Positions 1-63,327 of a stretch of DNA of 64,000 nucleotides are shown here, piece by piece. The stretch's first letter is position 1; each line of letters begins with the position of its first letter. The notes under the pieces were generated by a model that ran no database searches, had not been told where the DNA came from, and saw only the letters and a program-made list of their open reading frames with translations. Source of the stretch: Candidatus Zipacnadia bacterium (GTDB lineage: Bacteria; Armatimonadota; Zipacnadia; Zipacnadales; UBA5352); contig JALGSW010000042.1 in NCBI GenBank assembly GCA_029821635.1, forward strand, positions 19,202-83,201, given 5' to 3'. A program made the position numbers and the translations under genes.

Positions 1-2670
1 GACAAAGAGCTCAAAGAGCACTATCTGCGTGAGCACGACGGTGTGCGCCATGCGCAGGGCGTTCTTTGCGTCCTCAGACATGGCGGCGCGGACGATGATT
101 GTCTCGCCCGCGCTGATGGACGCGCGAGTCCCGGTCGGGTTGAGCTGGATGAGCTCTTCGACGGTGATGTCGTATTGTGAGGCCACCTGTTCGGGCGACT
201 GGCCGGCCTTGACGGTGTAGGTCGTGACTTCGCCGCCGTGCGGGTAGTCGCCGAAAGCGACGACCTCGCCGTAGCTGTAGCCGTGTGCTCGCATCTCCCA
301 GAGGAAGCCGCCGAGTGCGCCCGCGGTGCAGAGCACGGCAACCACCGCGAGGTAGGGGACCATGTCCCCGAGCATGTTCTCCTTCGGGTTGCGCGGCGGC
401 CGGGCCATGATGTCCGGTTCGCCCTTGGTCATGCCGAGGGCGAGGGCAGGGAAGCCGTCGGTGACGAGATTCACCCACAGGATCTGCAGCGGCAGGAGGG
501 GCAGAGGCCATCCGGCGAGGACGGCGATGGAGATGATCAGCAGCTCTCCGAAGTTCGCGGAGAGGAGGAAGCGGGTGAACTTGCGGATGTTGTCGTAGAC
601 GACGCGCCCCTCTTCGACGGCGGCGACGATGCTGGCGAAGTTATCGTCGGCGAGGACGATGTCGGAGACTTCGCGCGTGACGTCGGTGCCCTTCTTCGCC
701 ATGCCGACGCCGATGTCGGAGTGCTTGATGGCCGGGGCATCGTTGATGCCGTCGCCGGTCATGCCGACGATCTCGCCACGGTCCTGTAGCGCCTCGAGGA
801 TGCGCACCTTGTGGTCTGGGGCCATGCGGGCGAGGACCGAGATGTCGCTGATCGCGGCGCTGAGATCCTCATCGGACATCTCGTCAAGCTCGCGGCCGTC
901 GACGACGCGGCCGCCGTTGAGCAGGCCGATCTCCCGCGCGATGGCGGCGGCGGTTGCGCGATGGTCGCCGGTGACCATCTTCACGTCGATGCCGGCGTCG
1001 TGGCACTCGGCGATCGACTGGGCGACCTCAGGGCGCGGCGGGTCGATTATGCCGACGAGGCCGATGAAGGTGAGGTCGTGCTCGACTGTTTCGGCGTTGC
1101 ATGGGTCGCACATCTCGTCCATCCTGCGGTGTGCCAGGGCCAGGACGCGCAGGGCGTCATCGGCCATATCGGCGACGGCGTCGAGCGTCTGCGCGCGCGT
1201 CTCCTCATCCATCTCAACGACTTCGCCACCGCGCACCAAGTGTGTGCACAGCGACAGGATCGATTCGGCGGCGCCCTTGGTGGCGACGAGGTAGCCGCCG
1301 TTCGCCTCGTGGATGGTGCTCATGCGTTTGCGGGTCGAGTCGAAGGCGACCTCCTGCACGCGCGGGTAGTCGGCGCGAACGTCCTCGTGGTCGAGGCCGA
1401 TCTTGCAGGCGAGCGGCAGGAGGGCGCCCTCGGTCGGGTCTCCCGTGATCGTCCAGTCGCCCTCTTCGAGCAGTGTGGCATCGTTGCAGAGCGTCGCGGC
1501 GCGGGCAAGCTGTTCGAGCGCGGGCACGCCTGTGACGGGTTCGCCGTTGCGGAGGATATCGCCGGACGGCTCGTAGCCGTTGGCTTCGACGGTGTATTCG
1601 TGCTCGGCGGTGCGGATGCGGACGACGGCCATCTCATTGGCTGTCATCGTACCGGTCTTGTCGCTGCAGATGACCGTTGTGGAGCCGAGCGCCTCGGCGG
1701 CCGACAGGCGCTTGACGATCGCGTTGCGCTTCGCCATGTGCCGGACGGAGATGGCGAGGGAGAGTGTGACGACGGCGGGAAGGCCCTCGGGAATGGCGGC
1801 GACGGCGAGACTGACGACGGCCATAAAGAGCCCGAGTGGCTCGCGGTCGCGTACGAGCCAGCCGATCAGGAAGACTATGGCGCAGAGGCCGACGACGACG
1901 ATCAGCAGCCATGTCGCGAGTCGCTCGAGCTTGGCCTCGAGGCCGGTGTGGGTGGCATCGGTGGTGCGGACCTGAGCGGCGATGCGCCCCATTTGGGTGC
2001 TCATGCCGGTCTCGGTGACGATCGCCCGCCCGCGGCCGTAGGTGACATGCGTGCCCATGAAGACTTCAGCGGAGTGCTCGGCGAGCGGGCTGTCGGACGC
2101 GTTGGCTTCGGTCTGCTTGCCGACGGGCAGCGACTCTCCTGTGAGGAGGGCCTCGTCGGTCTCGAGGTTGAACGACTCGCAGACGCGGCAGTCGGCAGCG
2201 ATCTTACCGCCGGTCTCCAGCACGAGGATATCGCCCGGAACCACGTCCTGCGCATCGACCTCGGCCTGTCGGCCGTGACGGACGACGGTGGCGGTGGGGG
2301 ATGCCATCTTCCGCAGGGCCTCAACGGCCTGCTCGGCGCGGTATTCCTGGAAGAAGCCGAGCACCGCGTTGATGATGACGATCGCCATGATGACGGTCGC
2401 GTCGATGTGCTCGCCGATCATGAAGGAGACGGCGGCGGCGACCATCAGCACGATGACGAGGATGTTCGCGAACTGCCGGAGCAGGATCTTCAGCGGGTTG
2501 GGGCCGCCGCTCTTGTCGAGCTCATTCGGGCCGTACTGCTCGAGGCGGCGCTTCGCTTCCTCCTGGCTTAACCCGTTCGTGGTATCGGTCTGAAGTTGGT
2601 CCGCGACCTCCGCGACGGGCATGGAGTGCCAGTCCTGGGCAGGGGCGGGCTCCGCGGACGTCTTCTGCAT
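1..2670 (-). CDS. P-type cation-transporting ATPase (type IIA, Ca2+-ATPase-like), partial, C-terminus beyond window edge; LysM-like module in the TM7-TM8 loop
   Basis: Own translation of the minus strand from ATG at 2670 (GGGAGA RBS 7 nt upstream), open to position 1. Motifs DKTGTMT, TGDGINDAPA and PEGLP in TM4. TM6 NLVTD Ca-site. PPRNPKE after TM6. TM8-like TVVLTQIVLFELFV. The ORF is not in the supplied track because it has no in-window stop. Confidence 0.85.
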   Translation of the reverse strand, partial: MQKTSAEPAPAQDWHSMPVAEVADQLQTDTTNGLSQEEAKRRLEQYGPNELDKSGGPNPLKILLRQFANILVIVLMVAAAVSFMIGEHIDATVIMAIVIINAVLGFFQEYRAEQAVEALRKMASPTATVVRHGRQAEVDAQDVVPGDILVLETGGKIAADCRVCESFNLETDEALLTGESLPVGKQTEANASDSPLAEHSAEVFMGTHVTYGRGRAIVTETGMSTQMGRIAAQVRTTDATHTGLEAKLERLATWLLIVVVGLCAIVFLIGWLVRDREPLGLFMAVVSLAVAAIPEGLPAVVTLSLAISVRHMAKRNAIVKRLSAAEALGSTTVICSDKTGTMTANEMAVVRIRTAEHEYTVEANGYEPSGDILRNGEPVTGVPALEQLARAATLCNDATLLEEGDWTITGDPTEGALLPLACKIGLDHEDVRADYPRVQEVAFDSTRKRMSTIHEANGGYLVATKGAAESILSLCTHLVRGGEVVEMDEETRAQTLDAVADMADDALRVLALAHRRMDEMCDPCNAETVEHDLTFIGLVGIIDPPRPEVAQSIAECHDAGIDVKMVTGDHRATAAAIAREIGLLNGGRVVDGRELDEMSDEDLSAAISDISVLARMAPDHKVRILEALQDRGEIVGMTGDGINDAPAIKHSDIGVGMAKKGTDVTREVSDIVLADDNFASIVAAVEEGRVVYDNIRKFTRFLLSANFGELLIISIAVLAGWPLPLLPLQILWVNLVTDGFPALALGMTKGEPDIMARPPRNPKENMLGDMVPYLAVVAVLCTAGALGGFLWEMRAHGYSYGEVVAFGDYPHGGEVTTYTVKAGQSPEQVASQYDITVEELIQLNPTGTRASISAGETIIVRAAMSEDAKNALRMAHTVVLTQIVLFELFV

Positions 2671-2734
2671 CAACGATTCTCCCTGTAGGTGACATTGTGG
2701 CGGCCATGCAGGCGGAGGCGGGCCGGCTGCGCGG

Positions 2735-4195
2735 TCAGCCCTTGACCACAGCCAGCGGAGTCATGCGGGCAACGCGGCACGATATGCCGGCGCCATCGGT
2801 GACGCCGATCACGCGGTCCACGTCCTTGTACGCATATGGCGCCTCCTCGGCCAGCGTCTTCACGCCGACCGAGCGCACGTGGATGCCGCGCGCGCGCAGC
2901 TCATCCGCCACCGCACCGCCATGCTGGCGCTTCTTGGCAGCCGTGCGCGACATCACCCGCCCCGCGCCATGACAGGTCGAGCCGAAGGTCTGCTGCATCG
3001 CGACCTGCGTCCCGCGCAGCAACCACGAGGCCGTGCCCATGTCGCCGGGCACGATCACCGGCTGGCCGATCGCGCGATAGCGCTTCGGCAACTCCTCGTG
3101 CCCCGGCCCGAAGGCGCGCGTCGCGCCCTTGCGATGCACGCACAGGCACTTGACGCCACCAGCCACCTCGTGGTCCTCGAACTTCGCCACGTTGTGTGCT
3201 ACATCATACACCATTTGCAGGCCGATGCGCGAGGTGCCGAGGCCAAGAACTCGCTCGAAAGCCTCGCGAATCCAGTGCGTGATGATCTGGCGGTTGCACC
3301 AGCCGTAGTTGGCCGCACAGGCCATTGCGGCATAGTACGCCTCACCCTCAGGCGAGCGCACGGGGGCGCAGGCGAGCTGCCGGTCGGGCAGCTCGAAGCC
3401 GTACTTGTGCGCGGCGCGCTGCATCGGCTTGAGGGAGTCGTCGCAGACCTGGTAGCCGAGGCCGCGCGAGCCGGTGTGGATCATCACCGTCACCTGGCCC
3501 TCGGCCTCAATGCCCATCGCCCGCGCGGCCTCGCGGTCGTGGATGCGGTCCACGCGCTGTATCTCGAGGAAGTGATTGCCCGAGCCGACCGTGCCGAGCT
3601 GCGGAAGGCCGCGCTCAAGGGCGCGATCGGTGAGCGCGCTCGGATCGGCGCCGTCGAGGCAGCCGCGCTCCTCCGTGGCCTCCAGGTCACCGTCGGTGCC
3701 GTAGCCCTGCGAGACGGCCCAGCGCGAGCCCTGTTCCAGCACGCGGCGCAGCTCGGCCGGCTTCAGGCGGACCTTGCCCTTCTCGCCGACGCCCGCGGGG
3801 ATCTCCCGGAAGATGTGATCGTTCAGCGCGTCGAGGCGGTCGCGCACGTCGGCCTCGACCAGGTCGCTGCGCAGCAGCCGCACGCCGCAGTTGATGTCGT
3901 AGCCGACGCCGCCGGGGGAGATGACGCCCTCGTTGCAGTCGAAAGCCGCCACGCCGCCGATCGGGAAGCCGTAGCCGTAGTGGCAGTCGGGCATCGCCAT
4001 CGAGGCGCCGACGATGCCGGGCAGGCAGGCGACGTTCTGAACCTGCGTGAGCGCGGCGTCGTTGCGCATGTCGGCGATCAGCACCTCGTCGGCGAAGACG
4101 ATGCCGTCGGTGAGCATCCCGTAGTCGGCATCGCGCGGAATGCGCCAGCGATAGTCGTCAAGCTGCTCGAGCACGCCCTCGAATGCGTTGGCCAT
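2735..4195 (-). CDS. rtcB: RNA-splicing ligase RtcB
   Basis: ORF 2735..4543 trimmed to the internal ATG (MANAFEGVLEQ...) preceded by AAGGAGG. RtcB motifs HTGSRGLG and CHGAGR. The upstream extension of the long ORF runs through REP-like repeats and is not credible coding. Confidence 0.85.
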   Translation of the reverse strand: MANAFEGVLEQLDDYRWRIPRDADYGMLTDGIVFADEVLIADMRNDAALTQVQNVACLPGIVGASMAMPDCHYGYGFPIGGVAAFDCNEGVISPGGVGYDINCGVRLLRSDLVEADVRDRLDALNDHIFREIPAGVGEKGKVRLKPAELRRVLEQGSRWAVSQGYGTDGDLEATEERGCLDGADPSALTDRALERGLPQLGTVGSGNHFLEIQRVDRIHDREAARAMGIEAEGQVTVMIHTGSRGLGYQVCDDSLKPMQRAAHKYGFELPDRQLACAPVRSPEGEAYYAAMACAANYGWCNRQIITHWIREAFERVLGLGTSRIGLQMVYDVAHNVAKFEDHEVAGGVKCLCVHRKGATRAFGPGHEELPKRYRAIGQPVIVPGDMGTASWLLRGTQVAMQQTFGSTCHGAGRVMSRTAAKKRQHGGAVADELRARGIHVRSVGVKTLAEEAPYAYKDVDRVIGVTDGAGISCRVARMTPLAVVKG

Positions 4196-4220
4196 GGTGC
4201 GAGCCTCCTTTGCGCGACGG

Positions 4221-4262
4221 GGCAACGGCCGACGCATCCAAACGGCGGATGCGTCGCTCCAA
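4221..4262. repeat. family D element: 9-bp stem palindrome with AAACGGC loop (GACGCATCC-AAACGGC-GGATGCGTC), flanked by AACGGC repeats
   Basis: ggcaacggccgacgcatccaaacggcggatgcgtcgctccaaacggcaacggcg. Confidence 0.8.
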
Positions 4263-4282
4263 ACGGCAACGGCGTGACGGCT

Positions 4283-4303
4283 GACGGGCTGGAAGCCCGT
4301 CCC
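4283..4303. repeat. family B palindromic element (GACGGGCTGGAAGCCCGTCC) followed by AACGGC/GACGGC hexamer repeats
   Basis: Stem GACGGGC/GCCCGTC with loop TGGAA. Intergenic between the DUF721 gene and rtcB. Confidence 0.85.
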
Positions 4304-4325
4304 ACAAACGGCGACGGCGACGGCT

Positions 4326-4973
4326 CTAATGCGGCTGGAAGAAGGCGGACAGGCCCTCGTCGCCGCCGGCCTGAGAGGGGCGCTCGCGGGGGTGGCAGGA
4401 GAGGCACCACTGTGCGCTCTCCAGGTGCCACGCTCCGCAGCCGGGGCACTGGACGAAGCCGTGCTGCGCACGCCAGACCGCCAGCTTCGCTTGATACAGC
4501 AGCAGGCGCTCGAGGCGCTCGCCCATCTCCCCCTCGACATCACTCACCAGTTCCAGGATCTCCCGGATGCGCTCGGGCGGCACGTGAAGCGCGTCCAGCT
4601 CATCCTGCGCGGGCGCCGCCGGACCCTCAGGCTCCGCGGGCGCGAGATCATCCATCCGGCGGCCGATGCCGGCGCTGCTGGGCCGGATCTCGTCCACCAC
4701 GTCCTCACCCAGCGCCTCGTTGACGCGCCCGATGATGGCCGGCGCGTCGAGCTGCAACTGCTGGGCGCGCGGCGCCGACTCGCAGCGGATGTAGAGCGTC
4801 CTCCCGCGCAGGCTCACAACGTAGGTGTGCAGGGCATACCACTCGCCCGCCACGCGCGGCCAGACCATCATGCACAGGGACTCGCGCGACTCGTCGAGCA
4901 GCCCCACGCTCTTGAGGAAGACCTGCAGCGCGTGGCCGGCCTGTTTGATCGGATTGCTGCGGTCGTTGGGCAT
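4326..4973 (-). CDS. DUF721 / DciA-like zinc-ribbon protein (gene family typically found between recF and gyrB)
   Basis: ORF 4326..5102 trimmed to internal MPNDRSNPIKQ... Position immediately downstream of recF and sequence character fit the DUF721 family. The N-terminal extension of the ORF consists of G-rich palindromic repeat sequence. Confidence 0.55.
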   Translation of the reverse strand: MPNDRSNPIKQAGHALQVFLKSVGLLDESRESLCMMVWPRVAGEWYALHTYVVSLRGRTLYIRCESAPRAQQLQLDAPAIIGRVNEALGEDVVDEIRPSSAGIGRRMDDLAPAEPEGPAAPAQDELDALHVPPERIREILELVSDVEGEMGERLERLLLYQAKLAVWRAQHGFVQCPGCGAWHLESAQWCLSCHPRERPSQAGGDEGLSAFFQPH

Positions 4974-4994
4974 GCTTTCCCAGCTCTTCCTGTC

Positions 4995-5080
4995 CGGCGC
5001 GCAACGGCGCCCCTCCCCCCGACCCCCTCCCCCTGGAGCGCGCAAACGGCAGCGCGCTCGGCGGGAGAGGGGGAGAAAGG
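4995..5080. repeat. family E: nested G/C-rich palindrome (CCCCTCCCC … GGGAGAGGGGG) enclosing GAGCGCGC-AAACGGC-AGCGCGCTC
   Basis: Read directly. Lies between the DUF721 gene and recF. Confidence 0.7.
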
Positions 5081-5117
5081 CAACGACACGCGCCCCCTTC
5101 ATCTCCCTGCGCGACGT

Positions 5118-6260
5118 CTACTCCTTGCCCTCGCACGGCTCGCAGGTTGCGTCGTCGGCGCCGCTGCCGATCAGGTGCGCGTCGGCAAGGCGGTCGGCGA
5201 GGTGCTCCGGGCAGCACGCGCTCGTAACGATCATCTGCTCGTGGTCGCGGCTCAGGTCGAGCATCGCCGCGCCGCGCGCCGGGTCCAGCTCCGAGAGGCA
5301 GTCGTCCAGCAGCAGGATCGGCTGCTGCTCGGTGCGGGCGAGTGCCACGCGCGCCTGGGCGAGCTTGAGCGCCAGCGCCGCCGTGCGCTGTTGGCCCTGC
5401 GAGCCGAAGCGGCGCAGATCGACGCCGTCGATCTCGAGCAGCATGTCGTCGCGATGCGGCCCGACCTGCGTGGAGCGGCGGTCCAGCTCGCGACGATGCG
5501 TCTCCTCCAGCGCGCGGTAGAACTCGTCGGCCAGCTCACCGTCCGCCTGGGAGTTCACCACCGATGGCTCGTAGCGCACGCTCAGGCCCTCGGCGCCAAC
5601 GCCGAGGCGCTCGTGCAGCGCGGCCGCCTCGGGCGCGAGCGCGGCGAGGTAGTCGCGACGGTCGATCGTGATCGGCACGCCCGACTCGACGAGCGAATGC
5701 GTCCACGGGGCGAGCATGCGGCCGTCGCCACCGCGGTGCGCCATGCCCTTGAGGACCTCGTTGCGCTGGCGCAGCGCACGTCGGTAGCGCGCGAGGTCAT
5801 CGAGGTAGCGCGCGCTCATCTGCCCGAGCGCGGCGTTGAGGAAGTGCCGCCGCTCGGCAGGCGACCCCTTCACCACGTCCAGCTCGCCGACCCAGAAGAG
5901 GATCGCCTGCACGCGTCCGATGATCTCACGCGCGGACGCGACCTCGCGCCCGTCGATCTCCAGCGTCTTCGCGCCCGAACGGTCACCCGAAGGATCGCCG
6001 AGGGTGGTGCGCAGCGTCAGCTCGCGGCCGTCCACCACGAAGCGGCCTGTGACGCGGCCCCAGCTCTGCCCGTGCCGGACCATCGTGCGCGCCCGCCCGC
6101 CGCGCGCCGAGGTCGTCGTCGCCAGCAGGTAGATCGCCTCGAGGATCGTGGTCTTGCCGGAGGCGTTGGGGCCAAGGACCACGTTGAGGCCCGGCCGGAA
6201 GTCAAGCTCCGCCCGCTCGTAGCATCGGAAGTTCTCCAGAGTCAGCGATTGCAGGAACAC
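5118..6260 (-). CDS. recF: DNA replication and repair protein RecF
   Basis: RecF N-terminus VFLQSLTLENFRCYE and Walker A GPNASGKTT. Likely GTG start at 6258-6260 with GAGAGGA upstream. The track ORF extends to 6365 but would overlap the upstream gene by 83 nt. Confidence 0.85.
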   Translation of the reverse strand: MFLQSLTLENFRCYERAELDFRPGLNVVLGPNASGKTTILEAIYLLATTTSARGGRARTMVRHGQSWGRVTGRFVVDGRELTLRTTLGDPSGDRSGAKTLEIDGREVASAREIIGRVQAILFWVGELDVVKGSPAERRHFLNAALGQMSARYLDDLARYRRALRQRNEVLKGMAHRGGDGRMLAPWTHSLVESGVPITIDRRDYLAALAPEAAALHERLGVGAEGLSVRYEPSVVNSQADGELADEFYRALEETHRRELDRRSTQVGPHRDDMLLEIDGVDLRRFGSQGQQRTAALALKLAQARVALARTEQQPILLLDDCLSELDPARGAAMLDLSRDHEQMIVTSACCPEHLADRLADAHLIGSGADDATCEPCEGKE

Positions 6261-6282
6261 GGCCCGAGTCCTCTCGCGGCGC

Positions 6283-7491
6283 TTAGCCGAAGTCGCGCCA
6301 GAGCGCGTCGATGGCGAGCATCGCCTTGAGCCCCCACAGGTGGCACCAGGTGTTCTGATAGTCACCTGCGACGATGTAGCCGTAGTTCACGCCCGCCGGG
6401 TAGTGCGTCAGGATCGCCTGCTCCATGTAGTCGAGTGTCTCGTCGATCCACTGCAGGTAGCGCGCATCGTCGGTCGCGCGATAGCCGAGCGCGCAGCCGA
6501 CCATGATCTGCGCCATGCGGTCGTAGACGCAGACCGCACCGGTGCCGGTCGTCGCGCCATCGCCGACCATCGGCGGGGCGCTCGGGTCCGACCAGTCGCG
6601 CGTGTTGTGCCGATACCAGCCGCCCTCGGGGGAGCGGCTGTGCTCGGCGAGTTGGTCCAATGCCTCAACCGCGCGGTCGCGGTAGGCGTCGCCGCGGCCC
6701 GCGAGGTTGAGCCGGAAGCACGCCTGGATCATGTTCGCGTTGGTGTGCGTGTGCTTGACCGTGCGCTTCGGCGGGCCATTGCCGGCCTTGCCTGCGTAGA
6801 ACCAGCCGCCGAACTCGTCGTCCCACATTGCGGCGTCGGCGAGGTCCACGACCGTCTGCGCGTAGTCGAGGAAGCGCTGCTCGCCGGTCGCCTCCCACGC
6901 GTCCAAGAGCTTGAGCGCGAGGTAGCTCGACCGGTAGAGTTCCTGCGACCGGTCCGGCTGGAAGGCAGCGGTCCCCACGATGTGCGCAAGCACGTTCTCC
7001 GCCGCGTCCGCGAACTCTGGTGTGGGTCGCAGGCGGTCGTAGCGCAGGAGTGCGGCCACGCTGATCATGTTGAACTCGGGGAAGAAGTTGGTCTGCCACT
7101 CCGCGGTGTGCATGTTCCACTTCAAGTAGAACTGGCGCTGCCCGGCATCGTAGCCGTTGGCGATGACCCACGCGAGCAGGTCATGCGCGTGATCGAGATG
7201 GCGCGGGTCCTGCGACAGCTCGGCTATGTCCATCTTGACCGAGGCGAAGAACGACTGCTGCTGGGTGTGGAAGTTGCCCTCATTCGGCTCGGTGGGTGGC
7301 ATTGAGCGGCTGTTCTGATGGATGGCGCGGCCGTCGAGCACGTCGTGCCAGATGTAGGCGTCATCGACCGCGAGCATCGAGGCCATGCGCAGTTGCACCC
7401 AGTTGCGCGAGTGCTGCAGCAGCGGTTCGGCGGCGGCAGATGAGGCGATCGCCGCGACGAGGCAGATTGTCGGGACAAGACTCAGGCGCAT
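6283..7491 (-). CDS. secreted six-hairpin (alpha/alpha-toroid) glycosidase-like protein, possibly GH76-like
   Basis: ORF 6283..7569 trimmed to MRLSLVPTICLVAAIASSAAAEP, a signal peptide. WDDEFGGW and other aromatic-rich motifs are typical of alpha/alpha-toroid glycosidases. Family assignment is tentative. Confidence 0.5.
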   Translation of the reverse strand: MRLSLVPTICLVAAIASSAAAEPLLQHSRNWVQLRMASMLAVDDAYIWHDVLDGRAIHQNSRSMPPTEPNEGNFHTQQQSFFASVKMDIAELSQDPRHLDHAHDLLAWVIANGYDAGQRQFYLKWNMHTAEWQTNFFPEFNMISVAALLRYDRLRPTPEFADAAENVLAHIVGTAAFQPDRSQELYRSSYLALKLLDAWEATGEQRFLDYAQTVVDLADAAMWDDEFGGWFYAGKAGNGPPKRTVKHTHTNANMIQACFRLNLAGRGDAYRDRAVEALDQLAEHSRSPEGGWYRHNTRDWSDPSAPPMVGDGATTGTGAVCVYDRMAQIMVGCALGYRATDDARYLQWIDETLDYMEQAILTHYPAGVNYGYIVAGDYQNTWCHLWGLKAMLAIDALWRDFG

Positions 7492-7600
7492 GGTGCCGCG
7501 TACCTCCACGGTGCGAGCGCATAGAGACGGTGAGGGCACAGACTCGGTCGCCTGTGCCCATGATCTCACCTGACCGATTCGGTGTGCGGCCGCGGGGGCC

Positions 7601-8713
7601 TCACATGATCTGCATCGGCATGATCACATAGACGTAGTCGTCGGAGTCCTTCGGCTTAAGCGTCCCGGGCGAGAGCGGCTGCGACAGCTCCATCACGACG
7701 TCGTCCTCGCCGATGGCGCCCAACGCGTCGAGCAGGTAGCGGGCGTTGAAGGCGATCTCAGGCTCTTCGCCCTCGAGGGTCGCGGGGATCTGCTCCTCGG
7801 CGTGCCCGATGTCCTGCGAGTCGGCGGTGATCGTCAGGATGCCGTCTGCGCCGCGCAAAACGACGCGGTTCGCGTCTTCACGCGCGACGATCAGCATGCG
7901 CCGCAGCGTGTTCGTGAGGTCGGCGCGGTTGACGGTCACGCGGCGATCGGACTCGTCCGGCAGGACCTTCTCGTAGTTGGGGAACTGTCCCTCGATCAAC
8001 CGGGAGCCGACGGTCACGGTGCCGAGCGTGAACTGGACCTGCGAGTCCGAGAGGGCCATGCCTATGGTCTCTTCGGACTCGGGGTCAAGGATGCGGAGCA
8101 CCTCGTTGAGCGCGCGCTCCGAGATGATGGCGGAGCGGCCCTCTTCAAGGGAGATGTCCGCGGTCATCTTGCGCAGCGCGAGCCGGTAGGTGTCCGTAGC
8201 GACGACGTCGATGCCGCCGGGCGTGATCTTGAAGAGCGCGCCGGTCAGGATCGGCCGGGTCTCATCGCGCGACGTCGCGAAGACCGTCTGCGAGAGGATC
8301 GTGTGCATGTCGTGCTGTGGGATGTCGAAGCGCGCTGGCTCCGACATGGGCGGGAGCATCTCGAAGTCCGCCGCCGACATACCCCGGATGCGGAAACTGG
8401 TGCGGGAGGACTCGACCTTGAGCGTGTTGTGCTCGTCGACCTCCAAGCGTATCTCCTCACCCGCGAGCGAGCCGATGACCTCGGTGAGCAGGCGTGGGGG
8501 AACGGTAACCGCTCCCTGATCAGTGACGGACGCTTCGATCTCGGCCTCAAGGCTGATGAACTCCAGATCGGTGGCCACCAGCCGTAGTCCGTTCGCGGTG
8601 CTCTCGATGTAGATGTTGTTCTGCACCGGCTGGGTGCTCCGTCCCGAGACGCCGTGCGAGACGGTCTGGACGCTCTCATACATCTTTTCCTGGGGGCAGG
8701 AGAGGTTCAGCAT
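7601..8713 (-). CDS. dnaN: DNA polymerase III beta subunit (sliding clamp)
   Basis: 370 aa. N-terminus aligns with the DnaN pattern (…RSTQPVQNNIYIE…ATDLE). GAGGAGG RBS 9 nt upstream of ATG at 8711-8713. Confidence 0.9.
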   Translation of the reverse strand: MLNLSCPQEKMYESVQTVSHGVSGRSTQPVQNNIYIESTANGLRLVATDLEFISLEAEIEASVTDQGAVTVPPRLLTEVIGSLAGEEIRLEVDEHNTLKVESSRTSFRIRGMSAADFEMLPPMSEPARFDIPQHDMHTILSQTVFATSRDETRPILTGALFKITPGGIDVVATDTYRLALRKMTADISLEEGRSAIISERALNEVLRILDPESEETIGMALSDSQVQFTLGTVTVGSRLIEGQFPNYEKVLPDESDRRVTVNRADLTNTLRRMLIVAREDANRVVLRGADGILTITADSQDIGHAEEQIPATLEGEEPEIAFNARYLLDALGAIGEDDVVMELSQPLSPGTLKPKDSDDYVYVIMPMQIM

Positions 8714-8944
8714 TACGAAGGTCCTCCTCGCATAACCCGCGCAGAGAGTGGGAATACAACGACCAAGTTAACCGCATCTGCGCTGATGCGTCAAGACAAT
8801 TCGTTCCAGGACCAGGCAATACCTCCACCTGTCAGAAAAGCTGTGTAGCTATCGGAGCAGACACGACAGGCCTCTGAATCGGACAGCTTTCCACGGCGGT
8901 AGTGGTACGTCGCGACCTCTTTAATACCTTACTACTACTCCTAC

Positions 8945-9160
8945 TACGGACGTGGAGAGCGTGGAGAAGCGAGCCCCCATCACCGAAGCTGCACACGTCC
9001 GCTGAAGGCAACCTGAAGGCGCTCTTGTGGACGCCCGTGGAGAACACTCAGGGGCCCGGCCGGACTCGCGCGTGACGGCTCCCGAGCGGGTGAAGGTACG
9101 TGGAGAGCGTGATCGCTCTCTTCGCGTGGACGATGTGGAATATGTGCGAGCGGCCTCGCG
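8945..9160. promoter_or_regulatory. dense array of (C/T)GTGGA motifs upstream of dnaN (degenerate high-GC-type DnaA boxes?)
   Basis: At least 7 copies in ~200 nt: cgtggagag (x2), cgtggagaa (x2), tgtggacgc, cgtggacga, tgtggaata. Two copies of the 13-mer acgtggagagcgtg. Confidence 0.35.
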
Positions 9161-9265
9161 GGCCGCTGGGCAGAACCGGAAGAGAAGGAGCGCACAACCA
9201 GGCGGGTTGTCTACAGTACCCACAGCGGAAGTGGGGTCAGGAGGTTCTCCCCACAGAGTCCAGAC

Positions 9266-9919
9266 TCAATTCAGGTCCGATCCACCATGCTGCGGGGAGG
9301 GGGCGTTCGTCGGGGCGGTCGGCTCCTCGTCCTTCGCGATGGTCGCACTCACGGCGACCTCGAGGATGTCGCCGTTGGCATCGACGCCCACGCCGACGCT
9401 GCCACCCCACCAGTGGGTGTTGACGATGCGCTCCCGGGCAGGTCCGTCCCTGTCGGTCGCCGGGCCCTCGGTGGTTTCGTCGGGCTCCCCGCACGCCTCG
9501 ATGAGCGTGGAGAGGGTGGTCACCCGGCCGGGAGTGAAGGCCGTCTCACCGTCCGGGGCGATGTCCTTGCGGTGCCAGGAGAGCGTGAAGGGATCGTAGA
9601 TGTCGAAGTAGGTCTGTAAGCGGCCTCCCTCCTGGACGATCGCCCGCATGCGATCGCCCTCCTCGCAGACGGCGGCGAGGACCTGCTTGCCGGACTCCGT
9701 GACGTCGGCGAGGCCCTCCTGGTGGACAATGGGCTCGGGAGTGTGCTCGGGCGGGGTCGGGGCATCTTCAGGGGGGATGTCCGGTGCGAGAGCCACGCCG
9801 TCCGCGGGCGGCGCGGCATCCCGCGCGCATCCCGCGCACATGAGCAGCGTTGCGGCGAGTGCCACAGCGGCTGCGAGCAGCAGAGGCGCGGCCTCACGGG
9901 TGATCCGTGCTCGGGTCAT
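9266..9919 (-). CDS. lipoprotein of unknown function (inserted between dnaA and dnaN)
   Basis: ORF 9266..9988 trimmed to MTRARITREAAPLLLAAAVALAATLLMCAGC (signal peptide + lipobox). No recognisable domain. Confidence 0.5.
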   Translation of the reverse strand: MTRARITREAAPLLLAAAVALAATLLMCAGCARDAAPPADGVALAPDIPPEDAPTPPEHTPEPIVHQEGLADVTESGKQVLAAVCEEGDRMRAIVQEGGRLQTYFDIYDPFTLSWHRKDIAPDGETAFTPGRVTTLSTLIEACGEPDETTEGPATDRDGPARERIVNTHWWGGSVGVGVDANGDILEVAVSATIAKDEEPTAPTNAPSPQHGGSDLN

Positions 9920-10085
9920 GGCATTGCGCCTCCCGACACAGCGACAGCCGTCTCCGATCGGACGCTTCGGACAGATTGCTGCCACCATAGCGTGTACATT
10001 GTATCGATGTCAACTATGGGGCGGCGGATTGGTCCATTTTCTGAGCGCCGCCAGAGGCAGTGAACGGACAACCTGTACATGCGCG

Positions 10086-10110
10086 ACGAGCCGCTCTCTG
10101 AGCGGCTCGT
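10086..10110 (-). terminator. hairpin downstream of dnaA (11-bp stem, 3-nt loop)
   Basis: acgagccgctc-tct-gagcggctcgt located 45 nt after the dnaA stop. No U-tract, so possibly a Rho-dependent pause or an RNA stability element. Confidence 0.4.
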
Positions 10111-10155
10111 TGGCGCAACACACACACTGCATGGATGAAGGAGTGATGAATACGT

Positions 10156-11613
10156 TTACTCGAAGGCGGCCTTGAGGTCATTGATGAGCCAGAGGACCTG
10201 CTGGTCCTCGTCTATGAGTTCCGCGACCTTATTGTATGAGTGCAGCACGGTAGAGTGGTCGCGGCCGCTGAAGTACTCGCCGATGCGTGCGAGGGAGTTG
10301 TCGGTGAGCTCGCGGCAGAGGTAGATCGCAACCTGCCGGGCCCACGCGATATCCGCCGAGCGCTTCTTGGAGACGATGTCGTCCTCGGATACGTCGAGTT
10401 CGCCGGCGACGAGCGCGACGATCTCGGCGACGGAGACGCGTCGCTCGCTGGTGGAGGTGGAGTAGTCGCCGATGATGTCCTCGACCAGCGCGCGGGTGAT
10501 GTGCACGTCGTTGAGCGAGGCGTAGGCACAGATCTTCAGCAGCGCGCCCTCGAGGACGCGGACGTTGAACTCGATCTTCGCGGCGACGTACTCAAGGATG
10601 TCGCGCGAGAGGGGCACGCCCTCGGCCTGGGCTTTCTTTTCGAGAATGGCCACGCGCGTCTCGACGTCCGGAACGCGCAGGTCGGCGACGATGCCCATCT
10701 CCAGGCGCGAGCGCAGACGGTCGTTCATCAGCTGCAGGTGGCGGGGCGGGCAGTCGGAGGCGATGACGACCTGACGGTTGCTCTCGTAGAGCGTGTTGAA
10801 GGTGTGGAAGAACTCCTCCTCCGACGCAGGCCCCTCGATCGCGGCGATGAACTGGATGTCATCGACCAGCAGCCAGACATCGCCCGAGCGGTAGTTGCGA
10901 CGGAAACGGTCGATGGTGTTGTCGCGCATGCACGAGATCATGTGGTTGACGAATGCCTCGGCAGAGATGCACACGACCTTCACATCGGTGCGGCTGGAGA
11001 TGATGGAGTGGCCGATCGCCTGGATCAAGTGGGTCTTGCCGAGCCCGGAGGCGGAGTGAATGAAGAGCGGGTTGTAGGCCTGGCCGGGCGACTTGGCGAC
11101 CTGGAGCGCGGCGGCGTGGGCGAAGCGATTGCAGTCCGCCACGACGAAGTTCTCGAAGGTGTACTTCGGGTTCAGCGGCGACGAGCGCAGCTCGCCGGTG
11201 GCGTCGGGGATGGGCGAGACGGGTGCAGGGCTGCGCGCCGGCTTGACCGCGAGGGCCTGCGGTGTGGGGGAGCGTTCGGCGGGCTGCGCGGGGGCCTCCT
11301 CGACCAGCCGCCGCTCGGTGGGGCTGGGAGCGGGCTCGGCCACAAGCTCCTCGGGCAGCACCTCGACGCGGATCGTGATGTCGTGCTGCGCGACCTCCGA
11401 GACGCACGCATTCATCACGCTCACATGGTGGCGCTCGAGCCAGTCCTTCGCGAACTCGTTCACGACACCCAGGTGAAGGCGATCATCGTTGAGGCCCAGG
11501 GCAGTCGCGTTGGTCAGGAAGCCGTCGTACGTGGCCGGGCTGACCTTCTCAGCAAGCAGCGGCAGGCTCGCGCGCCAGATCTGCTCCCCGGACTGCTGTG
11601 TCTCGATTGCCAT
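10156..11613 (-). CDS. dnaA: chromosomal replication initiator protein DnaA
   Basis: DnaA domains present: N-terminal, linker, AAA+ with GLGKTHL Walker A, and C-terminal DNA-binding region. The track ORF begins at a TTG (11622). First ATG (MAIETQ) at 11611-11613. Confidence 0.9.
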   Translation of the reverse strand: MAIETQQSGEQIWRASLPLLAEKVSPATYDGFLTNATALGLNDDRLHLGVVNEFAKDWLERHHVSVMNACVSEVAQHDITIRVEVLPEELVAEPAPSPTERRLVEEAPAQPAERSPTPQALAVKPARSPAPVSPIPDATGELRSSPLNPKYTFENFVVADCNRFAHAAALQVAKSPGQAYNPLFIHSASGLGKTHLIQAIGHSIISSRTDVKVVCISAEAFVNHMISCMRDNTIDRFRRNYRSGDVWLLVDDIQFIAAIEGPASEEEFFHTFNTLYESNRQVVIASDCPPRHLQLMNDRLRSRLEMGIVADLRVPDVETRVAILEKKAQAEGVPLSRDILEYVAAKIEFNVRVLEGALLKICAYASLNDVHITRALVEDIIGDYSTSTSERRVSVAEIVALVAGELDVSEDDIVSKKRSADIAWARQVAIYLCRELTDNSLARIGEYFSGRDHSTVLHSYNKVAELIDEDQQVLWLINDLKAAFE

Positions 11614-11759
11614 GGATGACAACCCGTCCTTTGCCGTGAATGTGGGCGCGCAGCGGGAACCTCGGAAGGCCCCTCCGCGGGGCGGGCGGGTGCCGCTCGT
11701 AGTGAGCGATCAGTGGTGCGATCGGTGCTGTCGATGAATGCGCGCGAAGCGCGACTGCG

Positions 11760-12110
11760 ATGAGTTTCGGTGGAAAACATCGGCCTTCGTCTGCGGCCGG
11801 CACGGCCCCAGGCCGTGTCTTTCTTGACCGGCGAGGTTTTCCACATCGTTATCCACACTTGTGGAAAACCTTCGTCACCCTCCCCACGTGGGCAGAGTAT
11901 ACCAGAACCCAAATCGCAATGCAAAGGGAATCTGGGAAATCCCCTGATTCCGTGATACATGGCTATGAGAGGCCTCTACGGGCAATATGGGACTGCGTTG
12001 GGGGCCCCGGCAGGCGGTGCAGAGGAAAAAAATCTCCTGTCCATAATGTTGAAAACCTTAACGATGGTGGAGAGACGAAACGCCCATTCTGCGACGAAAA
12101 CGTGTCAGTC
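11760..12110. other. candidate oriC / dnaA autoregulatory region (DnaA boxes + AT-richer stretch)
   Basis: 640-nt non-coding gap upstream of dnaA. It contains the box cluster, further GTGGAAAAC and TGTCCATAA variants, and locally lower GC (gaggaaaaaaatctcctgtccataatgttgaaaacc). Confidence 0.5.
11837..11868. promoter_or_regulatory. cluster of three DnaA boxes (TTTTCCACA, TTATCCACA perfect, TGTGGAAAA inverted)
   Basis: Read directly: ggTTTTCCACAtcgTTATCCACActTGTGGAAAAcc, ~225 nt upstream of dnaA. Confidence 0.7.
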
Positions 12111-33745: not shown

Positions 33746-35533
33746 GTGGTGGAACTGACCGGACTGACGACGATGCTGCTGCTGGCACTCGCGCTGGCGC
33801 CGACCGGCCTCGCGGACGAGCTGGAGCCGCGCTGGGGCTGGCGGCTGGATGAGGCCGCCGATGGGCGCTGCGAGCCAGTGGTGGGGGAGATCGCGCTGGC
33901 GATCGAGGGCGCGGATGGCGTTGCGACGGGCGAGGGCCTCGGGACGATCGTCGCGGGCAGCATCGAGTGCCTCGTGCGGCCGCTTGCGGGCGGACGGGTG
34001 GAGCTGATCTCCTTCGCCGACGAGGGCGCACCCGCGGGCGAGTGGTCAGGGCTGGCGCTGGACGAGGAGATGCGGCCGGTCTTCCGCGTGTATCACTACC
34101 CCGAGGCGGGCGAGGCCCGCGCGGACGAGCCGCTGGAGGTCGGGCGCGAGCATCACCTCGCGGCGACGTGGGGCGCGGACGGCCTGCGACTCTACGTGAA
34201 CGGCGTCCTGCGCGCGCACTCCGAGGAGCGCAAGGCGCTGCACGCGATGGAGGGCATCACGCTCGGCGGCGGCGAGGGCCGCGCGGCCATCGAGCAGCTC
34301 GCGATCTTCACGCGACCGCTCTCCGACGCGGCGATCGCCGAGCACGTGCGTGAGCCGCGGCCGTTGCAGGCGCCCGCGATCGGTGGCGACGGTCCGGCGC
34401 AACTGAGCGTGGCTGACTTCGCGTCGGCGGCGTCGATGACCGGCGGCATCCAGGAGGCCGTGGACGCGCTGCCCGCAGGCGGCGGTGAGGTCTACGTGCC
34501 GCCCGGCCGCTACGTGCTGAAGTGTGCGGTGCATCTGCGCAGCAACGTGACGCTGCGCGGGGCAGGGCCGAGCACGCTGCTGGTGCGGCCGGCGGATGCG
34601 CACTCGCTCGCGACCGCGACGGTGGCGGTCGGCGACCGGAGCATCGCGGTCGAGGACGCGTCGGGCTTCGAGGTTGGCGCGGAGGTCGCGTTCCACGGGA
34701 AGCAGACCGGGTGGTTCGCCACGCAGGCGCTCATCACCGCGATCGACGGCAACCGCGTGACCCTCGACCGGGGCGTTGGCAAGGGCTTCACGCCGGAGGA
34801 GGGCGCGGCGCTTGGCAACCTCTACCCGATGGTGACTGCCGAGCACGCGCGCGCGGTGACGATCCGCGACCTGGCGATCGACGAGCGCCCCGGCGCCCGT
34901 CAGGGCCATCCGAACGAGGGCCCGGCGTCCTTCACGTGGGAGGCGATCCACCTCTACAACTGCCGCGACAGCCGCATCGAGGCCTGTCAGGTGCGCAATC
35001 ACATCTCCGACGGGATCGGCGTTCAGGGCGGGCGCGGGGTGACGGTCACCGGCTGCGTGGTGGAGAACTGCCGCGGCCACGGGCTGCATCCGGGCGTCTA
35101 CGTGCGCGAGAGCACGTGGACGGGGAATGCCTCGCGCGGCAACGCGGGCGACGGGCTCTACTTCTGCGTGGCGGTGCGCGACAGCATCGTGAGCGGCAAC
35201 GTCTGCGTGGACAACGCAGGCCACGGGATCGGCGGGCTGGGCGCGGGGCAGATCGGCGACAAGTACAACGTGGTCTCGGCGAACGTCTGCGCGCGCAACG
35301 GCCGGGCGGGGATCGAAGCGATCCTCGGCGGCGACAACGTCATCAGCGGCAACATCTGCCGGGACAACTCCCAGTCCGAGCCGGGCCGCTGGCCGGGCAT
35401 CCTGCTCGACCGCACCACGGACACGATCGTCACCGGCAACCTGTGCCTCGACACGCAGCCCGAGCCGACACAGACGCAGGCGGTCGTCGAGACGGATGGG
35501 TGCGAGCGGAACACGGTCGGCGGGAACGGGTAA
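33746..35533 (+). CDS. secreted protein: LamG/ConA-like lectin domain followed by right-handed parallel beta-helix (pectate-lyase fold)
   Basis: Signal peptide. N-terminal jelly-roll-like segment. C-terminal series of NxxGxG/beta-helix repeats (GNVCVDNAGHGIG, SANVCARNGRAGI, GNICRDNSQ). The track start is a GTG; an ATG lies 27 nt downstream. Confidence 0.7.
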   Translation: MVELTGLTTMLLLALALAPTGLADELEPRWGWRLDEAADGRCEPVVGEIALAIEGADGVATGEGLGTIVAGSIECLVRPLAGGRVELISFADEGAPAGEWSGLALDEEMRPVFRVYHYPEAGEARADEPLEVGREHHLAATWGADGLRLYVNGVLRAHSEERKALHAMEGITLGGGEGRAAIEQLAIFTRPLSDAAIAEHVREPRPLQAPAIGGDGPAQLSVADFASAASMTGGIQEAVDALPAGGGEVYVPPGRYVLKCAVHLRSNVTLRGAGPSTLLVRPADAHSLATATVAVGDRSIAVEDASGFEVGAEVAFHGKQTGWFATQALITAIDGNRVTLDRGVGKGFTPEEGAALGNLYPMVTAEHARAVTIRDLAIDERPGARQGHPNEGPASFTWEAIHLYNCRDSRIEACQVRNHISDGIGVQGGRGVTVTGCVVENCRGHGLHPGVYVRESTWTGNASRGNAGDGLYFCVAVRDSIVSGNVCVDNAGHGIGGLGAGQIGDKYNVVSANVCARNGRAGIEAILGGDNVISGNICRDNSQSEPGRWPGILLDRTTDTIVTGNLCLDTQPEPTQTQAVVETDGCERNTVGGNG

Positions 35534-44140: not shown

Positions 44141-45301
44141 TCAGACTCCGGCGCGCTCGAAGAGCGCCTCGTAGAAGTTGCGCCATGCGATCACCAGCGC
44201 GATCAGCGCCAGCACCGCGCTCCCCGCCAGCGCCGCCGCCGCCGTCCCCGCGGAGATCGCGTTGACGGACGACTCGCGCCGCTCGATCGCGTAGGCCACC
44301 GCCGCATCGAGCCTGCGCTCAAGCTCCCCCGTGCGCTCGCCGCCCGCGATCATCTGCCGGACGCGCTGAGGCAGGAAGCGCAGGTCCGCGACGGCGCCGT
44401 CGAGGCTCTCGCCCGCCCGCACCGCCGTAGCGGCCCGCGCGGCGGACGCGCGCATCGGCTCGTGGCCGGTCGCATCGGCCGCAAGGTCCAGCGCACGGTG
44501 GAATGTGACTCCGGCGCGCTGTGCCAGGTTCAGTGTGCGAAGAAACCGCGCCACTGCCGACCAGCGCGCCATCGAGCCGAAGACGGGGATCGCCATGGCC
44601 ACGCGCGAGCGCAGGTCGGCGAACACGCGGATCGCGTTGAGCGCGCGGAGGGCGTAGAGCAAGACGATCACGCCCGCAAGGATCGGGAGCAGGCGCGTGG
44701 CGGCCAGCTCGGCGTACCAGCGGAAGCCGCGCGCGATCATCCACGGGAAGGGCGCGACCAGCAGCGCCAGCACGAGCACCGCGCCGTAGTAGAGCCGCAG
44801 CCACTTGAGGCGGCCCTGCAGGCGCGCGTCGGTCTCGTACTGCTCGGCGAGCTCGCCGAGCATCTCCGGCAGCGCGCCAAGCTCCTCTCCGGCCTCAACG
44901 AAGCCCACCACGTGGCGCGGCAAGATCGCGGGGTAGCGCGCGATCTGCTCCGCGAGGCCCACGCCCTCGGCGGCCTGCTCGCTGATCTCGCGCGCCACGC
45001 GGCGCAGGCGGCGGTCGCCGAGGAGGTCGGAGAGCTCGTCGAAGGCGTCATGGGCATTCACGCCCGCGCGCAGCAGCGAGGCGAGCTGGGTGAAGAACTG
45101 CGCGAGGTGCGCGGACGAGACCGGGCGGAGGTAGTGGACAACGCTCGAGCCCCACGGTGACGCGCCGACCTCGGCGATGCGGACGGGGAAGAGGCCCTCG
45201 TCACGCAGCGCACGTGCGGCCTCACGCGAGTCGGCGGCGCGGATCGCCCCGCTGGTGCGCTCGCCGTCGCGGCTGTGCGCTTCGTACTGGAACTGAGGCA
45301 T
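44141..45301 (-). CDS. type II secretion / type IV pilus platform protein, GspF/PilC/TadC family
   Basis: ORF 44141..45370 trimmed to MPQFQYEAHSRDG (ATG 45299-45301). Two T2SSF repeats including the MIAGGERTGELERRL motif. No GspE/PilB ATPase gene nearby. Confidence 0.75.
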   Translation of the reverse strand: MPQFQYEAHSRDGERTSGAIRAADSREAARALRDEGLFPVRIAEVGASPWGSSVVHYLRPVSSAHLAQFFTQLASLLRAGVNAHDAFDELSDLLGDRRLRRVAREISEQAAEGVGLAEQIARYPAILPRHVVGFVEAGEELGALPEMLGELAEQYETDARLQGRLKWLRLYYGAVLVLALLVAPFPWMIARGFRWYAELAATRLLPILAGVIVLLYALRALNAIRVFADLRSRVAMAIPVFGSMARWSAVARFLRTLNLAQRAGVTFHRALDLAADATGHEPMRASAARAATAVRAGESLDGAVADLRFLPQRVRQMIAGGERTGELERRLDAAVAYAIERRESSVNAISAGTAAAALAGSAVLALIALVIAWRNFYEALFERAGV

Positions 45302-45496
45302 GATCGCCACCGGGTGCGGTGCGGATGCGCGCTCTGGGGGTATTGTAACGCGCGCGGGCCGAGGTTTCAACGCTGATGGTTCGGCGTGGGCGATCTGCCG
45401 GGGTTCTCAGAGGGCATGAGCGGCCTGGCGTTGAACTGCCTCAGTGCCGTGAGGTCAGTTCCGCAATTCCGCTGAAGTCACGAGCGCAGAGGGGAC

Positions 45497-55050: not shown

Positions 55051-55175
55051 GACACGTTCCCCTCTCGTTGTGCTCGCGACAACGACCGCAGGCTGGAATG
55101 CCTGAAGCGCAGAGCGCTTTGCGCGAGTTCGCTTCGCGAACGTCGATGCTCCACGAACGGCACGAACGGACATCT

Positions 55176-55199
55176 GACAGGCTGGAAAGCCTGTCCTAC
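55176..55199. repeat. family A palindromic element; supplies the TAG stop of the giant gene. A degenerate copy lies at 55088-55110
   Basis: gacaggctggaaagcctgtcctac. Confidence 0.8.
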
Positions 55200-59836: not shown

Positions 59837-59930
59837 GGTGAGTGCCTCCTGATAGCTGCGAACGACGTCGTTGCCCAGTCGTATGGAGGGGAGGGGCTTC
59901 AGCCGCTCCCACGTGCTCCGATACCCCCCA

Positions 59931-59990
59931 ACGGCCGACGCATGTAAACGGCACATGCGTCGCTCCGAACGACAACGGCGGAACGGCGAA
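59931..59990. repeat. family D element (GACGCATGT-AAACGGC-ACATGCGTC) with AACGAC/AACGGC tail
   Basis: acggccgacgcatgtaaacggcacatgcgtcgctccgaacgacaacggcggaacggcgaacggc. Same architecture as 4221-4262 with a compensatory change in the stem. Confidence 0.8.
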
Positions 59991-59994
59991 CGGC

Positions 59995-63164: not shown

Positions 63165-63201
63165 GATCGGTCTCCTTCGCGTGAATGCGAACGACAACAG
63201 C

Positions 63202-63245
63202 GACGGGCTGGAAGCCCGTCCTACAAACGACGTAACGTCAACGAC
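63202..63245. repeat. family B element with AACGAC tail, between the GRE start and the sulfatase stop
   Basis: aacgacaacagcgacgggctggaagcccgtcctacaaacgacgtaacgtcaacgacg. Confidence 0.85.
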
Positions 63246-63249
63246 GTCG

Positions 63250-63312
63250 TTCTCCCCCTCTCCCGCTTGAAACCGCGTCGTTTGCGGTTTCCAGGGAGAG
63301 GGGGCCGGGGGG
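63250..63312. repeat. family E nested palindrome: CCCCCTCTCCC-[GAAACCGCG-TCGTTTG-CGGTTTC]-GGGAGAGGGGG
   Basis: tctccccctctcccgcttgaaaccgcgtcgtttgcggtttccagggagagggggccgggggg. Confidence 0.75.
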
Positions 63313-63327
63313 TGAGGTAGCCTTACG

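Follow-up and report, generated by a model that had tools for sequence, protein, structure and literature searches.

The 64,000-nucleotide window analyzed here (contig JALGSW010000042.1 of a Candidatus Zipacnadia bacterium, positions 19,202 to 83,201) opens with the greater part of a gene for a P-type cation ATPase, and this pump carries a single LysM domain in the extracytoplasmic loop between its seventh and eighth transmembrane helices (M7 and M8; the loop is L7/8 hereafter). With some reserve, we favor reading the LysM as a periplasmic anchor or localization tag that would tie a SERCA-like P2A pump to peptidoglycan or another N-acetylglucosamine (GlcNAc) glycan. Such an architecture is apparently rare and undescribed within the sequences and literature that we searched. 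LysM and the P2A pump are each well known; the novelty is their combination and placement.

The inserted segment is confirmed as a genuine single LysM (CBM50) domain. A first-pass annotation, made from the letters of the window, had recognized the LysM consensus in a peptide (...GGFLWEMRAHGYSYGEVVAFGDYPHGGEVTTYTVKAGQSPEQVASQYDITVEELIQLNPTGTRASISAGETIIVRAAMSEDAKNALRMAHTVVLTQIVLFELFV) that exactly matches the minus-strand translation of window positions 1-2800. The Pfam profile PF01476 bears this out: with a gathering score of 20.9 bits, it matches residues 818-860 of the 890-residue protein (window 91-219, minus strand) over profile positions 1-42 of 43 at 27.3 bits (E = 3.6e-6), and it matches the loop alone at 31.6 bits (E = 1.6e-7). 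A second carrier, the metagenome fragment P0002, also exceeds the gathering score (24.8 bits), and the profile had no match in the nearest LysM-less relatives (P0123 and P0127) or in one ortholog loop run alone. When the insert, taken as 59 residues, was compared with the PDB using phmmer, the matches were the LysM domains of Bacillus subtilis LytE (2.5e-7) and YkuD (7e-6) and a Thermus thermophilus NlpC/P60 protein (4e-5).

Structure prediction leads to the same identification. AlphaFold2, run on the full protein with 121 aligned relatives of which just two span the LysM segment, predicts the order beta1 (816-819), alpha1 (826-832), alpha2 (837-843), and beta2 (857-861), i.e., a beta-alpha-alpha-beta domain; per-residue confidence (pLDDT) is 73-85 in this segment and 85.3 for the whole-protein model. 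A model of the loop alone has the same secondary structure elements. The top 25 Foldseek matches of the loop model in the PDB are LysM domains, including 4uz2, YkuD (3zqd/4a1i), MltD, the Volvox chitinase 5k2l, Ecp6, and AtlA (2mkx), with root-mean-square deviations of 1.4-2.0 Å across 45-50 residues and TM-scores up to 0.86 when normalized to single-LysM targets. The accompanying E-values are modest (0.05-0.4) because the domain is small, at about 45 residues. NCBIfam also returned a weak match of residues 815-859 to the SAG1386/EF1546 surface-associated protein family (27.8 bits, against a cutoff of 80), which probably reflects no more than a LysM-like region in that family.

The LysM sits in L7/8, as the first-pass annotation had proposed from the helices on either side. 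M7 occupies residues 768-795 (window 286-369, minus strand), as seen in the AlphaFold helix and in alignments to M7 of SPCA1 and SERCA1a, and a hydrophobic segment covers residues 765-793. The loop that follows (residues 796-865; 76-285, minus strand) is delimited by its M7 and M8 flanks, alignment, and charge, and it consists of a SERCA-like scaffold with the LysM inserted into it. Both codon-level and protein alignments define the insert as the 49 residues V815-A863 (82-228, minus strand). Beyond it, residues 866-890 (1-75, minus strand) form an outward helical extension and the start of M8, part of a continuous AlphaFold helix from 866 to 893; in the model, this extension and a short helix after M7 bear the LysM. 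The coordinates of 60-330 given earlier for the LysM-like module thus span the entire loop, and the domain itself is considerably more compact.

Alignments to solved pumps agree on this location. Against the PDB, phmmer aligned residues 16-795 with SPCA1 12-784, through M7, and residues 877-945 with SPCA1 793-862, covering M8 and M9, so that residues 796-876 are left over as inserted sequence between M7 and M8. The M8 alignment ("vlfElfvvfncqs" against "vtiEmcnalnsls" in SERCA1a) makes E887 (codon 10-12, minus strand) the counterpart of E908 in Ca2+ site I. We also excised the LysM computationally, replacing residues 815-863 with the single Gly of the orthologs, and aligned the C-terminal 241 residues to SERCA1a. 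The excised region then aligned with SERCA1a 753-980 in one stretch, luminal L7/8 loop included, and the loop scaffold (HGYSYGEVVAF....GDYPHGGEG) matched approximately residues 858-895 with high posterior probabilities. Counting from this alignment, the LysM is inserted at SERCA1a G885, within the exposed C876-C888 hairpin.

To our knowledge, L7/8 is luminal or extracellular in all solved P2 ATPases. The charge distribution fits the positive-inside rule: the LysM loop is net acidic (3 K+R, 8 D+E), and the K/R-rich parts are the cytoplasmic L6-7 (4 of 22 residues), L8-9 (3 of 15), and C-terminus (4 of 21). Homology and structure prediction therefore support an extracytoplasmic orientation of the LysM, and no line of evidence (alignments, AlphaFold, or charge) would put the segment in the cytoplasm.

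The host gene has the features of a working pump. Its frame begins with an ATG at position 2670 of the minus strand (MQKTSAEP...) and stays open through to the window edge; the open frame, its translation, and its Pfam and PDB matches identify codons 1-890 of 978 (window 1-2670) of a P2A-type (SERCA/PMR1-like) cation P-type ATPase gene, the final 88 codons falling outside the window, past its start. A database search recovered the complete 978-residue protein (P0121), which is 100% identical across the 890 residues encoded in the window; its source record is an 86.7-kb contig present in both NCBI and JGI. Along with LysM, Pfam finds Cation_ATPase_N, E1-E2_ATPase, Cation_ATPase, Hydrolase, and Cation_ATPase_C, a complete domain set, and the catalytic motifs DKTGT, TGES, and TGDGINDAP are all there. 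The catalytic aspartate D337 (1660-1662, minus strand; CSDKTGTMT in translation) and the adjoining K338, T339, G340, and T341 are nearly invariant in an alignment of 121 sequences. The top PDB matches in phmmer are SPCA1, LMCA1, and SERCA1a (E about 1e-156 to 1e-167), and the general P-type ATPase model TIGR01494 (HAD-IC) scores 315.7 bits, against a cutoff of 62.3.

The first-pass annotation had called this pump a Ca-ATPase, a label that holds for the ion-binding residues and is less secure as a family assignment. Compared with the SERCA ligands E309, N768, E771, N796, T799, D800, and E908, aligned to SERCA1a, every residue of sites I and II has its counterpart: E295 (IPEGLP), N706 and E709 (SANFGEL), N734, T737, and D738 (VNLVTDG), and E887 (LFELF), all nearly invariant in the alignment of relatives. 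The two best NCBIfam models, however, fall short of their equivalog cutoffs, with 663.0 bits against 703.4 for the SERCA type (TIGR01116) and 695.3 against 798.3 for the PMR1 type (TIGR01522), so we file the protein as a SERCA/PMR1-like P2A cation ATPase. Judged by its motifs and site residues, it is most likely a functional SERCA-like P2A pump that exports Ca2+, with Ca2+ specificity being probable.

How unusual is the loop? Counted from M793 to T877 in the alignment of the 121 closest proteins, it has 11-16 residues in 106 sequences, 20-25 in three, and 36-39 in ten, the last being the length typical of the clade to which the pump belongs. Only two sequences reach 85 residues: P0121 and P0002, a 233-residue fragment. 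These two are also the sole LysM carriers in a set made up of about 240 fragments and the 120 closest full-length relatives. They represent 2 of 14 clade members; the other 12 have a loop of 36-39 residues and no insert, among them the partial orthologs P0393 and P0394, with loops of 37-39 residues. The five closest species-representative genomes (L001-L004 and L010), metagenome-assembled genomes of Armatimonadota or "WS1", encode loops without LysM, their matches being approximately 48 residues shorter than the query. At the codon level (L002, L004, L010, and the contig L081), the insert is a clean in-frame swap of 49 residues for one Gly, between HGGE and M(S/T). The gene order dnaN-recF-dciA-rtcB-ATPase is common to the window and to three LysM-less loci (L001, L003, and L010). 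These loci are therefore orthologous by position, and the LysM amounts to an indel in a single orthologous gene. Since positional orthologs do without the insert, the LysM would appear to be dispensable for pumping.

Searches further afield found no additional carriers. When the M7-LysM-M8 segment was used in a HMMER search of 1.84 billion representative sequences, only P0002 matched end to end among the best 150 matches. The rest were multi-LysM proteins, whose repeated matches outrank any single-LysM ATPase, so this search is no census of the architecture across lineages. In a metagenome collection, neither an alignment scan nor a search for the YPHGGE...GQSPE junction by degenerate DNA pattern found anything, a weak negative, as the collection evidently holds neither known carrier.

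The clade loop without LysM deserves a comment of its own. At 36-39 residues (P0122-P0129, P0132, P0393, and P0394; L001-L004 and L010), it resembles SERCA1a L7/8 in both sequence and length, with the pattern …Y..(E/Q)(V/L)..F…D(Y/H)PH..EG… and without the SERCA cysteines C876 and C888. We considered whether the 37-residue loop of the clade had newly expanded in this lineage and dropped the idea because the loop aligns with that of SERCA1a; this resemblance may be relevant to how the SERCA-type loop originated. Elsewhere, P2A ATPases of Anaerolineae and Pleurocapsa (L017, positions 3826-6861; L034, 2759-5971; L037, 3859-6837; and P0003) have another, acidic L7/8 insert of approximately 60-70 residues (…PENWDELSIEQREEIL…) with no Pfam match. 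Lineage-specific insertions seem to recur in L7/8. One further record, P0395 (584 residues, ENA), is 85% identical over its aligned half, loses similarity exactly in M7-L7/8 (…MVLQWWWSPCSAPPGPSGLL…), and regains it at VLFELFVVFNCQS, which looks like a frameshift or sequencing error in the record and not a third loop variant.

Comparison of the two carriers shows that the insert is old, real, and under purifying selection in both lineages. In a neighbor-joining tree of the 180 C-terminal core columns that could be compared with P0002, P0121 groups with P0123, P0122, and P0001 (78% bootstrap) and P0002 groups with P0127, P0132, P0126, and P0129 (99.5% bootstrap); the carriers thus fall in two different subclades, and the tree neighbors of both are all without LysM. 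Between the carriers, amino acid identity is 50% in the insert and 66% in the flanks, the synonymous divergence (dS) is about 1.15 and about 1.4, respectively, and the ratio of nonsynonymous to synonymous divergence (dN/dS) is about 0.34 in the insert and 0.18 in the flanks. The GC content at third codon positions (GC3) in the window gene is 0.85 for the insert and 0.89 for the rest. From GC3, identity, and dN/dS, the insert is neither recent nor foreign-looking, and it is constrained. Recent horizontal acquisition is rejected, given the host-like GC3 and the greater divergence of the LysM copies than of their flanks. Independent double gain is unlikely because the insert junction (HGGE|...|MS) is identical in both independently assembled carriers. 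Either the LysM was present in the ancestor and was lost at least five times, or the loop was transferred long ago by recombination. Our phmmer comparison of all six-frame open reading frames (ORFs) in the window found no other LysM gene there as a possible donor.

What might the domain bind? LysM modules recognize GlcNAc-X-GlcNAc in peptidoglycan and chitin. One module suffices for binding to peptidoglycan and the sacculus, and in AtlA LysM the residues T13, L14, and I39 matter most, their mutation costing 60- to 80-fold in affinity, with lesser contributions from D37 and L38 (PMC4083421). In our manual alignment, T13 corresponds to S825, L14 to P826, I39 to I852, D37 to A850, and L38 to S851. 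The motifs kept between both carriers (GQSPE, ITVE, NP, and SISAG) map to the beta1-alpha1 and alpha2-beta2 loops, which form the glycan groove in AtlA LysM. That GQSPE and SISAG are identical amid 50% overall identity suggests a conserved though atypical groove. We infer that the ligand would be a GlcNAc-containing glycan, namely, peptidoglycan strands, with a preference for denuded or nascent ones.

M7-M10 is the least mobile side of P2 ATPases through the transport cycle, and this static setting, together with the orthologs that have no insert, makes a passive anchor or tag the most economical reading. A single LysM at the tip of the periplasm-facing loop, on the M7-M10 side of the pump, would bind the GlcNAc glycan of denuded or nascent peptidoglycan strands and so might hold or concentrate the pump at particular wall regions, for example, at the septum, at the poles, or where new wall is made. 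Our model for such anchoring is provided by FimV and HubP, inner-membrane proteins of diderms in which one periplasmic LysM serves as a positional determinant. Deletion of the FimV LysM delocalizes the polar pilus-machinery proteins PilO and PilQ, which depend on FimV, and denuded septal or polar peptidoglycan is a recognized LysM target (PMC5285504).

Several points weigh against an anchor. The affinity of a single LysM is weak, micromolar for (GlcNAc)4-6 and about millimolar for muropeptides with stem peptides (PMC4083421), and in this domain the canonical GDTL reads GQSP, with the key Leu of AtlA replaced by Pro. The linker has only approximately 10-20 residues, so the mature sacculus might be out of reach in an E. 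coli-like diderm envelope, and the envelope type of the source organism is itself surmised from nearest relatives only. The distribution is patchy as well: with 2 carriers and 12 noncarriers, and the carriers in different subclades, the LysM was often lost or never fixed, and its benefit would be conditional at best. Finally, the conservation argument is thin, as it rests on just two sequences.

The main deflationary alternative is that the LysM is a near-neutral passenger: its fold is kept in a permissive hairpin, glycan binding has been lost or is inconsequential, and the domain is on its way out. Carriers scattered over two subclades would imply repeated loss, GDTL has degenerated to GQSP, the insert has a higher dN/dS than its flanks, and L7/8 accepts unrelated inserts in Anaerolineae and Pleurocapsa relatives. 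However, a dN/dS well below 1 at a dS of about 1.2 means that the insert has been maintained over a long divergence, both copies still exceed the Pfam threshold, and the unusual GQSPE and SISAG are identical in copies that otherwise share just half of their residues. We therefore regard a passenger as unlikely, albeit worth keeping in mind. An artifact would be the most radical deflation, with an assembly chimera, a frameshift, or mistranslation producing a spurious LysM-like stretch; a contig assembled from a metagenome is the probable source, and only two instances of the architecture have been seen. Yet the 147-nucleotide segment is in frame with ATPase sequence on either side and has the GC3 of the gene, a second JGI contig of independent origin (L081), with no more than 60% identity, shows the same junction, and the profile and fold evidence is strong, all of which leaves very little room for this explanation.

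If the domain is real and maintained, it could still do something other than anchor. It might be a regulatory sensor, with glycan binding to the LysM relayed through the M8 extension to alter pump activity and couple export to the state of the wall. The geometry is suggestive, in that the LysM is attached directly to the continuous helix that becomes M8 (866-893), E887, the site I residue, lies approximately 25 residues below it, and the insertion falls at the counterpart of the SERCA C876-C888 hairpin. Work by Li and Camacho from 2004 reportedly found that the redox state of this hairpin modulates SERCA2b through ERp57, and in Na,K-ATPase the regulatory beta subunit docks at L7/8. But M7-M10 is the least mobile part of these pumps, orthologs function without this domain, M7 and M8 show no sign of coevolving changes, and known single bacterial LysM domains are binding modules, not allosteric switches. 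A sensor role is, to us, quite improbable, and we give slightly less credence again to its strictest form, a P-type ATPase directly gated by cell wall glycan, in which a LysM at the L7/8 tip would act through M8 and E887 to tune export to wall synthesis or damage. The domain could also have another target, such as environmental chitin or chito-oligosaccharides, a GlcNAc exopolysaccharide, or a periplasmic protein partner. Chitin is a LysM ligand at least as good as peptidoglycan (PMC4083421), the motif in the binding loop is unusual, and the window is rich in polysaccharide-degrading genes. Against this, a domain on the inner membrane surface of a diderm meets peptidoglycan and its fragments and not polymeric external glycans, and no evident partner gene adjoins the ATPase, whose neighbors are rtcB, dciA, and recF. 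A different target consequently seems a poor prospect, and an anchor on GlcNAc glycan continues to be the reading that we prefer.

The ATPase comes last in a run of co-oriented genes whose upstream part spans window positions 2735-11868. This array includes dnaA (10156-11622), dnaN (7601-8713), recF (5118-6365), dciA (4326-5102), and rtcB (2735 to about 4060, minus strand). Three DnaA-box-like sites at 11837-11868, one of them an exact TTATCCACA, lie directly upstream of dnaA, so this is probably a replication-origin region. The mechanically called RtcB ORF (2735-4543, minus strand) has 602 residues, yet the RtcB profile begins at residue 167; the true start is probably approximately 160 codons downstream, and the dciA-rtcB spacer would then be larger than the ORF list implies. 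Farther along, positions 33746-63644 are rich in predicted polysaccharide-active or surface proteins. Genes in this part of the window encode a beta-helix/Laminin_G protein (33746-35533), a DUF6259 protein (35575-38262), a T2SS-F/type IV pilus platform protein (44141-45370), a CarboxypepD_reg/Big_1 repeat protein (52753-55173), a PcRGLX/GH127-like protein of 1627 residues (55196-60079), and a glycyl-radical enzyme (60876-63644).

The first-pass annotation was not aware of any description of this architecture, and our full-text literature search likewise found no report of LysM in a P-type ATPase, a weak negative, as domain architecture databases lay outside that search. Few transporters have been studied as closely as P-type ATPases, and these pumps usually expose very little on their extracytoplasmic side. 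An elaborated L7/8 either recruits a separate subunit, as with the Na,K-ATPase beta subunit, or forms a redox-regulated hairpin, as in SERCA2b. We know of no earlier ion pump that is physically linked to the cell wall; if our reading is right, this carbohydrate-binding domain in L7/8 would make the first, and it would provide a natural test case for the positioning or regulation of pumps with respect to peptidoglycan. The gene family has members that carry the insert and members that do not, three of the latter at the same locus, and these would serve as ready-made controls. The L7/8 tip (SERCA1a G885) would also be a place that tolerates a whole folded domain, which could help in building tags or sensors into P2 ATPases. 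The importance of the finding is potential and not established, based as it is on two environmental sequences.

Among characterized pumps, the eukaryotic P2A Ca2+-ATPases SERCA1a and SERCA2b share with the window protein the ten-helix architecture and all residues of Ca2+ sites I and II. In SERCA1a, as in the window protein, L7/8 is the main extracytoplasmic protrusion, and after removal of the LysM the remaining loop of approximately 37 residues aligns with SERCA1a 858-895. However, the SERCA loop has no folded domain, just the disulfide-bonded C876-C888 hairpin, whose cysteines the window protein does not have. The best overall PDB matches, Listeria LMCA1 (6zhf/6zhh) and SPCA1 (8iww), are cation exporters of prokaryotes or the secretory pathway (E about 1e-165 to 1e-167) and differ in having no extracytoplasmic domain; the M7-M8 loop of SPCA1 has approximately 8 residues, and those of bacterial and archaeal sequence relatives have 11-16. 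The alpha subunits of Na,K- and H,K-ATPase provide another parallel among pumps in textbook accounts, in that their L7/8 holds a folded extracytoplasmic module that affects pump placement and stability. There, the module is a separate, noncovalent beta subunit, whereas here a carbohydrate-binding domain is fused into the loop itself.

The parallels on the LysM side are of two kinds. FimV and HubP are inner-membrane proteins of diderms with one periplasmic, peptidoglycan-binding LysM, and the likeness lies only in the proposed use of that LysM. Each spans the membrane once as a scaffold, with its LysM at the N-terminus, a large acidic region in the cytoplasm, and a FimV/TPR domain at the C-terminus, an architecture that differs from that of the window protein, a ten-helix P-type ATPase with its LysM between two transmembrane helices. 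The LysM domains of wall enzymes (Enterococcus faecalis AtlA, B. subtilis YkuD and LytE, and T. thermophilus NlpC/P60) are alike in fold, profile match, and a core of 43-48 residues. In those proteins, though, LysM is terminal, often repeated, and carried on peptidoglycan hydrolases or transpeptidases with the GDTL motif, while in the window protein a single copy with GQSP is embedded in an ion pump.

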